Virus record (IMG/VR): IMGVR_UViG_3300005613_000027
Location: 23,112-87,111 of that record
Length of the DNA: 64,000 nucleotides
Reading direction: 5' to 3' (one strand)
Source: a virus
Positions 47,395-60,121 of the stretch are shown here, one piece after another. Within the stretch, counting starts at the first letter, position 1, and the number at the start of each line of letters is the position of its first letter. A program made the position numbers and the translations under genes. Below the pieces are notes generated by a model that was not told where the DNA came from, searched no databases, and saw nothing but the letters and a program-made list of their open reading frames with translations.

Positions 47395-47601
47395 TTAAAA
47401 TTTATATTTAATCAATATATGAACATGATTAATATCTACTTCCATTTCTATTATTTTAAAATCAGATATATTTTCTATTCTGTAAAATTCACTTTTGATA
47501 AAATTTCCAAAATTCACTAACAATGACTTTCTATATTTGCAAACAAATATTAAATGGCAAATTAACAAATGTTTTGAATGATTTTCTGATACATAATCCA
47601 C
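47395..47601 (-). pseudogene. tnpA: Truncated IS200-type Y1 transposase
   Basis: CHLIFVCKYRK and EMEVDINHVHIL (HUH); ends before the catalytic Tyr helix. Confidence 0.8.
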
Positions 47602-48845
47602 GATTTTCTTGCTCCAATCCTTTGTAAATTATTTAATTTAGGTGTTTTCATTCCTCTTGGCATATTTGAAAAATCTACTTTATTACCAAATATATCCATT
47701 AAAATACAATAACCTGAACTCATACGCCCTTTGATAAAATATTCTTTACCTAAATATTTAACTTTATCAAATTTTCTAAATCCTTGAATTTTACCTGTTG
47801 GTATTTTTTGTTCTGAACGAATGCCTTTAGTTTTTTGGTAATCACGATACGAAACACATTTCTTATACAAAATTTGACTTGTTTTAAAATCAATATTTAT
47901 CTGTCCTGTATTTATAATATTATTTAAACAAGCTATAGCCACAGCGTCATTATAATGTTCTTTAGTTAGTTCTAAATACCGTCTATGAACTTTAGTTATA
48001 TATCCAAAGGTTTCTTCTGCTTCAACTTTTTTTAGTAATTGTATTCTTATACTGTTCATTTGTGTTGCATGTTTTAATTGATTTTTGGTTTTTCCTTTTT
48101 TCTTTAATTTAATTTTACCTTTATGTAATTTGTCATGACAAGATTTACATAGAGTTATAAGATTGCTTTCTTCGTTTGATCCATTATTACTCCTAAAAAT
48201 AATATGATGAACCTCTAATTTACTGTCTTTGCTTTTACCTTTACAATATTGACAAGTGTAATTATCTCTATTTAAAACCATTGCTTTAGCATTTTCAAAT
48301 CCATAATTTAATCCTTTTTGGTACATCCACTTATTTTTTAATACAGCTGGATTTTTTAAGGCGTGAGTATCAAAATTACCTGTTTCAATTATAACTTTGG
48401 TAATTGGAAGTATAGATTTAACAAAATTAATTTCTTTTAAATGATTATTAATTTTACTTGTCATAGTAGGTGAAAATCTACCATTTTTAATACTATTTTT
48501 CCTATTTAGCCACCTTGCTTTACGGTATCTAGTTTTTCTATTCCTTCTACTTCTACGATATTTTGACCTACGATTCATTTTGTCTGAAATATCATTTCTT
48601 ATTTCAACTTCTGATAAATACACAACTTCATTGTTTTCATTTACAACTGCACTACCTATTTTGCTACTTCCAGTATCTACACCAAGCATTAAATCTTGAG
48701 TATAATTAGTAGTTTGATAAGTTAATTTAATTGTAAACGGTGTTTTTCTTTTAACTTTAGCCTTACCTGATTTTAGTAATAATCTTGCTATTACATTAGT
48801 ACATGGCATTAAAGGTGTTCCGTCATAATTAATTACATAAACCAT
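47562..48845 (-). CDS. iscB: RNA-guided endonuclease IscB
   Basis: PLMP; GVDTG; Arg-rich bridge helix RRSKYRRSRRNRK; HNH LEVHHI...NLITLCKSCH; HYNDA. Confidence 0.93.
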   Translation of the reverse strand: MVYVINYDGTPLMPCTNVIARLLLKSGKAKVKRKTPFTIKLTYQTTNYTQDLMLGVDTGSSKIGSAVVNENNEVVYLSEVEIRNDISDKMNRRSKYRRSRRNRKTRYRKARWLNRKNSIKNGRFSPTMTSKINNHLKEINFVKSILPITKVIIETGNFDTHALKNPAVLKNKWMYQKGLNYGFENAKAMVLNRDNYTCQYCKGKSKDSKLEVHHIIFRSNNGSNEESNLITLCKSCHDKLHKGKIKLKKKGKTKNQLKHATQMNSIRIQLLKKVEAEETFGYITKVHRRYLELTKEHYNDAVAIACLNNIINTGQINIDFKTSQILYKKCVSYRDYQKTKGIRSEQKIPTGKIQGFRKFDKVKYLGKEYFIKGRMSSGYCILMDIFGNKVDFSNMPRGMKTPKLNNLQRIGARKSWIMYQKIIQNIC

Positions 48846-51728: not shown

Positions 51729-51807
51729 GAGCGATCGAACGGCTTCCTAATATCAAAATAGAGAAGCCAAGTCTATAATACTAATTAGTTAAAGGAGGTG
51801 ATAACAC

Positions 51808-52038: not shown

Positions 52039-52103
52039 ACATATTATTCTTAATGAATCGTATGTTTGAAATCCCTAATAATTAAATGAAAGGAGGTAAT
52101 ATT

Positions 52104-52607
52104 ATGACTGTTGAAAGAAAAGAACCAGACGAATTAACTCATGGAGGATTCAAATTCCGTAACTGGGGTATTGACTCTATCAGTCCAAACGTTATAGCCA
52201 ATTTCTGTTCTGGTTTAGATAAGGACAAATTTGACCGAATAGACATGATGGGGGATACCGAACCTGAGGATACAATTGTAATAACATATTCAGAATCAAT
52301 CACTAAGTTCTTAACTGGTGATGTTTGGCAATCAGAAAGTAGATACGATACTGTTGTTTGGTTGTACCCCACAACTAAAGCATGGACATGCTCACTGTTC
52401 ATTTACTTAGACAGCGGTGATCCCATTGTCCATAAATTCATAGACTCACAGGATGAGAACAAGTATGAACCACCTAACTGGTTGCGTATGGATTATCAAA
52501 AGTTAAGAATGATAGATTTCGTTCGCTGGAGTGGGTGGGCTATGTCAGAAGTGTTTGAGGAGATAGCTAAAAACATTAGATATGCTCTAATGTATGAAAG
52601 GAGGTGA
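52104..52607 (+). CDS. Hypothetical protein (start MTVER)
   Basis: AAAGGAGGT RBS. Confidence 0.55.
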   Translation: MTVERKEPDELTHGGFKFRNWGIDSISPNVIANFCSGLDKDKFDRIDMMGDTEPEDTIVITYSESITKFLTGDVWQSESRYDTVVWLYPTTKAWTCSLFIYLDSGDPIVHKFIDSQDENKYEPPNWLRMDYQKLRMIDFVRWSGWAMSEVFEEIAKNIRYALMYERR

Positions 52608-52611
52608 TATC

Positions 52612-52905
52612 GTGAGTACTCAACAACAACCGGAAGCCGCGCCACTACAATGTTTTGAATGTGGTGCCGAAGTAAAACGTCTGCCAGGTACACCTGAGGA
52701 CATGGAAGAAAGTATGTGTCCTGCGTGTATCAAGAAGTTCCCATTAGCTATGTGTCATGGGTGTCCTGCTGAACGTCAGACAAAAGAAGTGGTAGGCGCA
52801 CACTTTGTCTGTGATAACATGGATTGTCCAAACGGTCTTAAAGAATTGGATAAAACATGCCATGACCGTAAAAATTGGCTCTTTCATGATGGCACACTAC
52901 GTTAA
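52612..52905 (+). CDS. Cys-rich zinc-binding protein (GTG start)
   Basis: AAAGGAGGTGAT RBS; CFEC, CPAC and CHGC. Confidence 0.55.
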   Translation: MSTQQQPEAAPLQCFECGAEVKRLPGTPEDMEESMCPACIKKFPLAMCHGCPAERQTKEVVGAHFVCDNMDCPNGLKELDKTCHDRKNWLFHDGTLR

Positions 52906-52935
52906 GGAAGGGAGGTGATAACTATCAAATAATCA

Positions 52936-53118
52936 GGTAGGAAAGAGCAGGGGTCAATGGGATTGGGATCCGAACCGGCCCCTGCTCCCACCTGTTCTGT
53001 ACACAAACCATTCGTAGGAGTGGGAAGCGGCACTCACGGTCTACCCAGGTTTGTGTGCAGTACAGGTGGTTGATACCATCTAGCGTAATTCTGCCCGCTA
53101 TAAGCAGAAACAACTACT
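52936..53118 (+). ncRNA. Unassigned structured RNA candidate (two long stems plus H-type pseudoknot)
   Basis: Stems 52945-55/52977-87 and 52988-53009/53048-69; TAGCG/CGCTA crossing TTCTGC/GCAGAA. Confidence 0.55.
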
Positions 53119-53159
53119 TCCAAGGAGGTGTTATTATGGATGATACCACCTCGCTAAGC

Positions 53160-53244
53160 TAACATGGCAAACCCATCGTAAGGTGGGGGCGCAAAGCCAC
53201 GGGGGCCCGCCGCACTCACTGGGTAGGGGCTAGCCGGGTTGTTA
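53160..53244 (+). promoter_or_regulatory. Cyclic-di-GMP-I (GEMM) riboswitch aptamer
   Basis: GGCAAACCCATC-GTAA-GGTGGG-GGCGCAAAGCCACGGG...TAGCCGGGTTG matches the GEMM consensus; G at the position equivalent to Vc2 G20. Confidence 0.8.
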
Positions 53245-53391
53245 TTCATGATCACAGGCAATCATATATGTGAGTCTATTCCTTATCATGATCTCTAAAT
53301 TGCCAAAAGGAATTGTGATTATGCTGCCGCTTAGCGAACGGAAGACAAGGGTAGTTAGGACAAATAAACTCCTAACCAATAGAGCCACTCT

Positions 53392-53445
53392 GTGGAGTAC
53401 CACGCACACTGTGGAGGACTACCCACAACGTGGAGGACTACCCAC
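53392..53445 (+). repeat. GTGG..CCAC mini-hairpin repeats (16-bp direct repeat at 53411 and 53430; shorter variant at 53392)
   Basis: GTGGAGGACTACCCAC twice and GTGGAGTACCAC. Confidence 0.85.
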
Positions 53446-53542
53446 TGAGCGGATAGGGGAGGACAGGATTACATGAACCGTTTTCCTTATATAAGAACTG
53501 CATTTTAAAGTACAACTTTATGAGAACTAAGGAGGTGATATC

Positions 53543-53728
53543 ATGGCAGGATTAGTAGAAATGGCCACTCCCAATGGATGGTTATCTACATCAGAAGAAC
53601 AAGAACAAAGTGGATTTAAGTTTGTTAAGAACCACCAGGTACTGGCTTCTGATGTTAGAAAAACTAAGAAAAAGAAAAAGAAACGTAGAAAAATTGTTGC
53701 ACGATCACGTGCACGTAATCGCAAGTAA
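53543..53728 (+). CDS. Small protein with very basic C-terminal tail
   Basis: AAGGAGGTGAT RBS; RKTKKKKKKRRKIVARSRARNRK. Confidence 0.6.
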   Translation: MAGLVEMATPNGWLSTSEEQEQSGFKFVKNHQVLASDVRKTKKKKKKRRKIVARSRARNRK

Positions 53729-53742
53729 AGGAGGACAAGACA

Positions 53743-54102
53743 GTGAGCCCTAATATTATCGTAATCAACAAATGGCACGGAGGGTTGCCCAATCTATATC
53801 AAAACCTCAATGATAAGGTGATATACCATATCATGAAGAGCGAGGGCAGTATACTGGGCAACACAAACTACAATTCCAAGGATATGACACTTACTGAGAA
53901 CCTTGCTGCTTACGACAAGTGGCTCTGGGAAGAGGTCAAAGCACAGGGCGAGGTGTACAACCTGCTGTGCAGCATGGTAAGCAAGTTCAACAAAGGTAAA
54001 TCTATCTACCTGGTGTGTGTATGCAAGCCCAAGCCCTGCCATGGGGACAGTGTAGCTAAGTGTTTAATTTGGATGTTGCAAAAACAGATATGTGTCGGCT
54101 AA
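53743..54102 (+). CDS. DUF4326-like protein
   Basis: GSILGN...YDKWL...LVCVCKPKPCHGD. Confidence 0.75.
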   Translation: MSPNIIVINKWHGGLPNLYQNLNDKVIYHIMKSEGSILGNTNYNSKDMTLTENLAAYDKWLWEEVKAQGEVYNLLCSMVSKFNKGKSIYLVCVCKPKPCHGDSVAKCLIWMLQKQICVG

Positions 54103-54115
54103 AGGAGGTGATACC

Positions 54116-54358
54116 ATGCCGAACAAACAACCGTTTATAACAACCTACCTGGCATGTGTTGGGTGGAAGGCACAACTGATTGTATGGAATGAAGATGAGC
54201 AGATCTGGGAGCCTTGGCAGACCAGTTTCTTTGCTTATGGAACGGAAGAAGAGGCTGAATGCTACGGTGTAAGCTGGGCAGAAGCCGAGGGAATTGAATT
54301 TCAATACAGAAATAAGGAACGGAAGGAGGTGAATTCACAATGTATTATACTGGCGTAG
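54116..54358 (+). CDS. Hypothetical protein (start MPNKQ)
   Basis: AAAGGAGGTGAT RBS. Confidence 0.55.
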   Translation: MPNKQPFITTYLACVGWKAQLIVWNEDEQIWEPWQTSFFAYGTEEEAECYGVSWAEAEGIEFQYRNKERKEVNSQCIILA

Positions 54359-54939
54359 GAGCAAGGGCAACTCCTGCTCACATACTGCAGCTTATGACAC
54401 AGATTGCAGTTAAACTTGCTGCTTTAGGGTGGACTCTACGCTCAGGTGGTGCAGCAGGAGCAGACTTGGCATTTGAACAAGGTGCTACATTAAAGCAAAT
54501 CTTCCATGCTAATATGGCCACTGAACAGGCTATGGCCATAGCGGCGGCATTCCACCCTGCATGGAACAAGATGGGGTCTTATGCTCAAAAACTTCATGGA
54601 AGGAATGCTTTTCAAGTGCTTGGACCATCACTATGCGAGCCATCGACGTTCTTGGTGTGCTGGACACCTGATGGATGCCCTGCATGGAACAAGATGGGGT
54701 CTTATGCTCAAAAACTTCATGGAAGGAATGCTTTTCAAGTGCTTGGACCATCACTATGCGAGCCATCGACGTTCTTGGTGTGCTGGACACCTGATGGATG
54801 CAAATCTCACGCCACCAGAACACGCGCTACTGGCGGCACTGGTACTGCTATATCCATCGCTTCACATTATCGTTTGTCAATAAACAATTTGGCAAATACT
54901 GAAACCTTCAACATATGGACAGCTTGGCTGCAAAGATAA
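54340..54939 (+). CDS. SLOG-superfamily (DprA-like) protein with an in-frame 41-aa duplication
   Basis: YTGVGARATP; LRSGGAAGAD; RNAFQVLG; GGTGTAI. Confidence 0.75.
   Translation: MYYTGVGARATPAHILQLMTQIAVKLAALGWTLRSGGAAGADLAFEQGATLKQIFHANMATEQAMAIAAAFHPAWNKMGSYAQKLHGRNAFQVLGPSLCEPSTFLVCWTPDGCPAWNKMGSYAQKLHGRNAFQVLGPSLCEPSTFLVCWTPDGCKSHATRTRATGGTGTAISIASHYRLSINNLANTETFNIWTAWLQR
54556..54801. repeat. Exact 123-bp tandem duplication
   Basis: Unit encodes PAWNKMGSYAQKLHGRNAFQVLGPSLCEPSTFLVCWTPDGC, present twice. Confidence 0.95.
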
Positions 54940-59616: not shown

Positions 59617-60121
59617 ATTTGAATATAAGAAAGGAGGTGATAAACAGAGGCGCTATGCGTGGCATCACGACTTGGCATAATTAACCACTTCTTCCCACAT
59701 TTTAACCACTAACTCTCATGAACCGATACCTGCGCTTAACGGCCCGTGATTTCGGTTCATAGCCCCACTTTCTCAGCCGTGGTCAGGGTTTGAGCTCCCT
59801 CCGGTCGCTTTTTTTCTCGGTTCCCGATTAAATGATAATTCTCATAATCACATTTCGGAGCTGCAAATCTCATAATAATATTTCATTTCTGCAATTCTTG
59901 CAATGACATTTGCTTTTTCCAAATGCTGCAGCGGCATTTCAAATACGAGATATATGCGAAAGCGGAGACGGACTGCGGAGTTTTTCTCGGAGCCCGAATA
60001 AACGAAGAAATTTAACCAGAAAGGAGGTGATGCGTTGGAACCGTTAGCACTGTTAACGGGCCTGTTTATTATTACTATTGCCATTGGTGCAAAAGCCAAC
60101 ACAAAACGAAAGGAGTTTTTC

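Follow-up and report, generated by a model that had tools for sequence, protein, structure and literature searches.

Does this giant-phage fragment encode a working riboswitch of the c-di-GMP-I (GEMM-I) class, and which cyclic dinucleotide would such an RNA recognize? The window (the whole 64-kb stretch of DNA that was analyzed) comprises the last 64 kb, toward the 3′ end, of an IMG/VR record of 87 kb whose completeness is estimated at 32%. Genes for the terminase, portal, and HNH endonuclease are located on the minus strand of the window, and a divergent plus-strand block starts near 50.3 kb; the presence of terminase and portal in the record bears out the phage origin supposed by an earlier reading made from the letters alone (the sequence-only reading). 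The strand-switch region is adjoined by a gene encoding a 427-aa IscB-like protein with RRXRR and HNH domains (47562-48845, minus strand). The candidate riboswitch shares the strand of its flanking genes and lies within the 637 nt that separate ORFs without any assignable annotation (52086-52905) from the genes downstream. All leader elements described below are on the plus strand.

The first downstream genes (53543-54939, +) were annotated using Pfam and PHROG and have canonical Shine-Dalgarno (SD) sequences. They include a 61-aa basic ORF with a canonical phage SD (53543-53728, +), a DUF4326 gene (53743-54102, +; Pfam, 3.3e-8), an 88-aa ORF (54092-54358, +), and a DprA/SLOG-like gene (54340-54939, +; PHROG 768 DprA-like, 1.6e-61), beyond which a PcfJ-like gene and then NADAR genes are found. 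As had been proposed from the letters, the first convincing CDS starts at 53543, some 300 nt of structured RNA away, with the DUF4326 and SLOG genes behind it; it is led by a canonical SD. The PADLOC and NCBIfam searches of 10 neighboring proteins returned weak NADAR-type matches only. No GGDEF or EAL genes were found in the 87-kb record, which, at about 32% completeness, is weak evidence of their absence.

The region 53156-53246 (+) was matched to the c-di-GMP-I family RF01051 by cmscan with Rfam 15, with a score of 53.3 bits against a gathering score of 35 and an E-value of 1.4e-7. The score exceeds the curated cut-off by 18 bits, the alignment covers the full length of the model (positions 1-87) with zero non-canonical pairs flagged, and no other Rfam match in the 64-kb window reached any gathering score. 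The good match to the GEMM consensus seen at 53160-53244 by the sequence-only reading lies inside this interval, and the covariance-model check suggested there with RF01051 proved significant. Among viral examples, which reach 54-88 bits, this is a low score. The folding of the isolated 91-nt aptamer revealed no excess stability over shuffled sequences (z -0.17), so it is not stability that speaks for the aptamer but its conserved positions and its match to the covariance model. Under permissive thresholds, the lowest E-value in the clan was obtained for the UAU variant family RF03168 (1.7e-9, 51.8 bits); membership in this family was rejected, the score being below its gathering score of 65.9 and the pocket matching U20/A47/U92 at two of three positions (G20/A47/U92), without the defining U20. 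Assignment to the GEMM-Ib class, which recognizes c-AMP-GMP (3′,3′-cGAMP) and needs A at position 20, was likewise rejected, since the window has G53166 there. All conserved pocket and tertiary positions of the aptamer are intact, except position 92. We therefore regard 53156-53246 as a genuine class-I c-di-GMP (GEMM-I) aptamer with high confidence.

To place individual bases, the numbering of Vc2 of Vibrio cholerae, the RF01051 reference (PDB 3IRW), was used. The window aptamer and Vc2 have in common the three-helix junction, the GNRA-capped P2, the GCAAAG junction with A47-A49, and the bases C44, G83, A18, and G20. For comparison, at least 120 bacterial GUAA-type aptamers were collected by pattern from 185,579 species genomes, 116 of them with a cleanly parsed tail. 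In the Rfam consensus alignment, J1/2 (ACAUG) extends over 53162-53166 and, at 5 nt, differs from that of Vc2; it includes A18 (A53164) and G20 (G53166, model position 11 of RF01051). The G at position 20, noticed from the letters, is thus confirmed. Position 18 is A in 108 of the 116 relatives and position 20 is G in 98; A20 was observed in 13. G20 in J1/2 makes the Hoogsteen contact to Gα of c-di-GMP. In viral contigs, four GEMM-I aptamers scoring above the Rfam cut-off (L029, L038, L044, and L047) have A instead of G directly before GCAAAC, i.e., at position 20, which is the signature of the c-AMP-GMP-type variants.

The P2 arm (53167-53192) was defined by the covariance-model alignment, with pair probabilities of 0.99-1.0. 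It contains the pairs G53167-C53192 and C53168-G53191, a stem at 53172-77/53182-87, and the GUAA tetraloop at 53178-81. The GCAAAG junction occupies 53191-96 and includes the J2/3 adenines A47, A48, and A49 (53193-53195, covariance-model alignment); A47 is the intercalating adenine in the c-di-GMP-I junction. Both bases of the interhelical C44-G83 pair are present at the aligned positions (C53190 and G53233), where the pair is predicted. The roles of A47-A49 and of the other junction and tertiary bases have been described for the c-di-GMP-I aptamer (PMC3764141). The P3 arm, also taken from the covariance-model alignments (53195-53240), is closed by the pairs 53195-98/53237-40 and has a bulged A53199, a 17-nt loop (a difference from Vc2), and G83 at G53233. 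The GNRA-capped P2, the junction, and the closing of P3 were all read correctly from the letters.

In c-di-GMP-I aptamers, the P2 GNRA loop docks on P3. The 11-nt tetraloop receptor of Vc2 is absent from P3 of the window aptamer, which has a candidate helical CC:GG-type receptor in its place. The CCC:GGG segment is located at 53206-08/53226-28, with one G×G mismatch flagged at 53205/53229. CC after the P3 base was found in 108 of 120 GUAA-type relatives; the window has its CCC:GGG there, with the register shifted by the mismatch. GUAA loops are said to dock on CC:GG receptors, a rule attributed to Costa and Michel in 1995, and the GUAA loop and CCC:GGG segment of the window appear consistent with it.

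In J3/1, C92 forms a Watson-Crick pair with Gβ of c-di-GMP. In the window, unlike Vc2, this position is U (53242): the consensus tail gCC reads GUU, position 93 being U rather than C as well, and the pocket is composed of G20, A47, and U92. Neither this substitution nor the near-equal RF03168 score (51.8 bits) had been noticed by the sequence-only reading. Position 92 is C in 114 of the 116 cleanly parsed GUAA-type aptamers and U in two, the window aptamer and L144; two further bacterial aptamers with U92 (L063 and L114) were spotted by eye. C92 was found in all of the approximately 20 genuine aptamers recovered from IMG/VR, and U92 in none. L144, L063, and L114 are natural bacterial G20/A47/U92 aptamers with the tails GUC, GUC, and AUC, respectively, and their pocket composition, like that of the Vc2 C92U mutant (3MUR), is identical to the one in the window. 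The Vc2 mutant, however, was engineered, and the three bacterial aptamers keep C93 and the G-C apex and are found in ordinary bacterial leaders. The U92 aptamer of L063 is the first of a tandem pair, the second member of which is canonical.

Positions 20/47/92 are the ones that Rfam's variant names denote: in agreement with this naming, the GGC model reads CGCGAAG, and in the UAU model (RF03168) GCAAA is preceded by U and the tail is UGUC. By the composition of these three positions, the G/A/U pocket of the window is intermediate between the canonical G/A/C and the U/A/U class; the latter, c-di-GMP-I-UAU, was reportedly introduced by Weinberg et al. in 2017 as a variant class with an orphan ligand. 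In Vc2, C92U lowers the responsiveness to c-di-GMP without abolishing it, and the effect is partially rescued in vivo by high c-di-GMP (10.1101/617340); the complex of this mutant was crystallized (PDB 3MUR). Hence, the statement of the sequence-only reading that G20 favors c-di-GMP holds as far as G20 itself is concerned, but is incomplete, since the partner base C92 is replaced by U, which weakens c-di-GMP binding in Vc2. As U92 is a known, tolerated natural variant, it reduces confidence in affinity and specificity but does not exclude class membership. By analogy with Vc2 C92U, the most likely ligand would be c-di-GMP at a raised threshold. G20 and, by a G-U wobble, U92 may be the bases that read it, with binding weaker and faster-off than in a canonical aptamer, and the RNA would then respond only at high host c-di-GMP.

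The same pocket could also have an altered specificity, preferring either 3′,3′-cGAMP, with its G against G20 and its A in a Watson-Crick pair with U92, or the orphan ligand of the UAU class; we consider this unlikely. The rarity of U92 (two of 116 bacterial relatives, the window counted, and none of about 20 viral ones) is in its favor, as is the rank of RF03168 as the best clan member by E-value, with U92, A47, the GUAA loop, a C/G-rich P3, and the 3′ end AGCCGGGUUGU common to both. The Vc2 G20A/C92U double mutant binds c-di-AMP (PDB 3MUV), which indicates that U92 can pair with adenine, and natural members of this fold have been re-tuned by a single change in the pocket, A20 leading to c-AMP-GMP recognition (PMC7266159, PMC9481103). 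Nevertheless, the window departs from RF03168 at position 20 (G instead of U) and at position 93 (U instead of C); the RF03168 cut-off was missed (51.8 vs. 65.9 bits), and G20 is the canonical determinant of c-di-GMP. Moreover, Vc2 C92U still responds to c-di-GMP, and the flipped orientation of cGAMP is a deduction for which no literature report was found.

3′,3′-cGAMP is a signal made by many CBASS anti-phage systems. A narrower version, in which G20/A47/U92 is a re-tuned sensor of 3′,3′-cGAMP or of both dinucleotides and switches on DUF4326, SLOG/DprA-like, and NADAR genes as a counter-defense, seems very improbable. If true, GEMM-I would have evolved toward cGAMP sensing twice, by independent routes, and no riboswitch before this one would be known to let a virus detect an immune alarm.

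How the aptamer could be coupled to gene expression was considered from the predicted folds of the leader. P1 proper comprises only 2 bp: its 5′ strand (U53160 and A53161) pairs with U53243 and A53244 in the register analysis. With J1/2 set at 5 nt, the register found in 34 of the 116 relatives, A53161-U53243 and U53160-A53244 are both standard pairs; an alternative 4-bp register (C53163-G53241 and A53162-U53242) would bury U92. At the P1 apex, the canonical G-C and C-G pairs of Vc2 are replaced by A-U and U-A; all four changes are transitions and pairing is kept, which suggests that pairing has been maintained under AT pressure. P1 is continued by a long-range helix, P0, predicted to form 9 Watson-Crick bp between 53151-53159 and 53329-53337. 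This helix was present in both the MFE and centroid folds with pair probabilities of 0.5-1.0, and a helix as long occurred in 25 of 2000 dinucleotide shuffles.

In the predicted fold, P0 encloses the aptamer and a 77-nt platform hairpin (53247-53323; pair probabilities 0.73-0.99, MFE and centroid). The 10-bp base helix of this hairpin (53247-56/53314-23) contains an AUG at 53321-23, and an SD-like AAGGA (53307-11) lies in a bulge of 9-10 nt. The longest perfect stretch of the hairpin is not significant alone (296 of 2000 shuffles), the 193-nt domain made up of the aptamer, platform, and P0 has a z of -2.2, and the leader is highly structured over 646 nt (z -5.7). Vc2 differs from the window in this respect as well, since no standard terminator or SD platform is found here and P1 runs on into a long-range helix that has a hairpin inserted. 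A search of the plus strand between 52000 and 54500 revealed no intrinsic terminator, no pairing of the aptamer with the SD of the first convincing gene (53543) was found in the folds, and promoter-like sites around the aptamer occurred at chance level, no promoter being placed.

Upstream of P1, a canonical SD (AAGGAGGTG) with a 5-nt spacer and an ATG was read from the sequence at 53122-53162. It opens an 8-codon mini-ORF (53136-53162), the stop codon of which (53160-62) overlaps the 5′ strand of P1; the SD word and spacing are identical to those of the real gene start at 53543. From these signals, the leader ORF would be translated, and its translation would be incompatible with P0/P1. A similar layout was noticed in the second long intergenic region of the window (59617-60034, 418 nt), which opens with a canonical SD, followed by a very short ORF of about 9 codons (ATG near 59655) and by GC-rich, structure-prone sequence.

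Downstream, the AUG buried in the platform hairpin opens a doubtful 51-codon ORF (53321-53476; 68 codons if counted from GTG 53270), which overlaps the GGA-hairpin repeats. The 68-aa product belongs to no Pfam family, and among 1.8 billion representatives it gave only repeat-driven matches with proteins of 815-4671 aa. Judging from this, the 51-aa ORF is probably not a gene, and because of that the "sequestered start" may be meaningless.

From these elements, the following mechanism is proposed. Ligand binding would lock a closed form in which P1 and P0 surround the hairpin burying the SD-like site and AUG 53321. The leader would open without ligand, or when the 8-codon ORF (53136-53162) is translated across the 5′ strand of P0/P1, or under both conditions. 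The outcome may be a change in how the RNA downstream is translated, how stable it is, or whether it is read through, affecting the GGA-hairpin segment first and then the 53543 operon (the 61-aa ORF, DUF4326, DprA/SLOG-like, PcfJ-like, and NADAR genes). The switch is probably OFF at high c-di-GMP; we infer this direction, as well as the target, from the predicted fold.

A second element of the leader bears on whether the aptamer is still functional. A long hairpin at 52988-53068, about 150 nt upstream, looks like a decayed copy of the aptamer in the fold and in a pairwise alignment. Its P2 part and 3′ part are alignable to the aptamer, while the GCAAAG junction and the 5′ strand of P3 are missing, and no Rfam match to it was obtained at E < 10. 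This copy carries CTACCCA where the aptamer carries the sense TGGGTAG. Further upstream, at 52909-52931, a full canonical SD (GGGAGGTGATAAC), identical in its word to that of the real start at 51791, directly follows the stop of ORF 52594-52905 but is not followed by a start codon; a gene start displaced by the structured insert may have left it as a remnant.

The relatives of the region were searched for at several levels. The blastn search of 52600-53800 against 50,697 phage records gave zero matches, and exact and degenerate aptamer patterns in IMG/VR recovered only the record itself and one unrelated match. No DprA-like protein was found in viral contigs. The homologues of the PcfJ-like protein are at most 36% identical, and an Rfam scan of their nine loci and one whole viral record gave no match. 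Host inference from identical aptamer cores was rejected as an approach, the same 36-nt core occurring in unrelated phyla, for example Omnitrophota and Herpetosiphonaceae.

The aptamer might be a relic that arrived with host leader DNA and no longer works; its survival would then be due to a recent arrival or to a role of the region merely as structured RNA (a spacer, stabilizer, or processing site). This would agree with the clear decay of the neighboring copy, the mutated key recognition base and minimal P1, the lack of a recognizable expression platform of the usual kinds, the element not being retained in any relatives, and its GC content of 62% in a neighborhood of 30-43%. The remaining conserved positions, however, are all intact, the two P1 pairs have changed in a compensatory manner, the score is well above the curated cut-off (by the 18 bits mentioned), and U92 also occurs in bacterial aptamers at normal leader positions. 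We judge a relic to be a minor but appreciable possibility. The detection of the aptamer by Rfam, while the copy 150 nt upstream has decayed beyond detection, was counted in favor of a working switch. Overall, the aptamer is probably still functional as a cis-acting sensor, and it is slightly easier to believe than to doubt that it has been kept in working order as a c-di-GMP (GEMM-I) switch within the 637-nt structured leader of a giant phage.

The segment following the platform contains three short GUGG...CCAC hairpins with GGA-containing loops (53385-53450), identified from the sequence and the fold. Two of the three carry CUACCCA, the complement of the aptamer P3 loop UGGGUAG (53220-26); of the five occurrences of CTACCCA in 64 kb, three fall into the riboswitch intergenic region (53041, 53419, and 53438). 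These hairpins, directly downstream of the aptamer, raise the possibility of a stable non-coding RNA, protected from RNases by the ligand or abundant enough to soak up the dinucleotide or, via the GGA hairpins, a CsrA-like protein. The lack of a terminator or an SD-sequestering link to the 53543 gene and the strong structure of the leader (z -5.7 over 646 nt) would fit such an RNA, and aptamer-controlled sRNA stability has a precedent in the Vc2-terminated sRNA of V. cholerae (10.1101/617340). On the other hand, no promoter or terminator delimits an sRNA, a sponge role requires a high copy number, and the weakened U92 pocket would be a poor design for a c-di-GMP sponge; this explanation is accordingly held to be improbable, and a cis-acting sensor of c-di-GMP is retained as the preferred interpretation.

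For a long time, phages were believed to make little use of riboswitches; of the c-di-GMP-I class, a 2017 survey listed only two phage examples, Cdi1_4 and Cdi1_5, both from PhiCD119-like Clostridioides difficile prophages (PMC5473149, PMC3649979). In both of these, as in the window, a GEMM-I aptamer resides inside phage DNA. The C. difficile elements are located in the lysis module of temperate phages, whereas the window represents a giant-phage fragment in which the aptamer precedes DUF4326, SLOG-like, PcfJ, and NADAR genes. A deliberately narrow aptamer pattern retrieved 37 IMG/VR contigs, and at least 18 aptamers above the curated cut-off were found in the 17 IMG/VR loci scanned; some of these contigs may include host DNA. 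The IMG/VR examples all have C92 and mostly precede genes for surface or exported proteins, sigma-like regulators, or a response regulator.

Two aptamer-derived units in series and a regulated gene far away are also features of the tandem c-di-GMP-I doublets, of which 347 are known (PMC9481103), and of the Bc1 riboswitch of B. thuringiensis with its long platform (PMC11218506), respectively. In contrast to these systems, the upstream unit in the window is a plain long hairpin without a ligand junction, and there are no terminators. Phage-borne c-di-GMP-I riboswitches are thus already known, and the one described here is set apart by its U92 pocket, non-standard platform, and gene neighborhood. 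It adds an example from a giant phage, with a rare substitution in one of the two bases that read the ligand, and it stands before a cluster of nucleotide-handling genes and not before envelope or adhesin genes. If c-di-GMP is bound only weakly, the virus would be deciding for itself at which level of a host lifestyle signal it responds; if the specificity has shifted, the aptamer would be a natural experiment in re-tuning the GEMM-I fold.

Several other viral contigs with GEMM-I aptamers showed additional features. In a 234-kb contig (L042), a Pistol ribozyme (L042:160-229, 65 bits) was found 1.4 kb upstream of a c-di-GMP-I-class aptamer (L042:1589-1667); this aptamer is followed, 25 nt on, by a gene that has an SD and gave a weak match to the Lcl_C domain. 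Four contigs (L017, L021, L023, and L040) have pemK RNA or dinG RNA motifs within about 1.5 kb, and in L017, L023, and L024 sigma-70 region-4 proteins are encoded 250-400 nt downstream of the aptamer.
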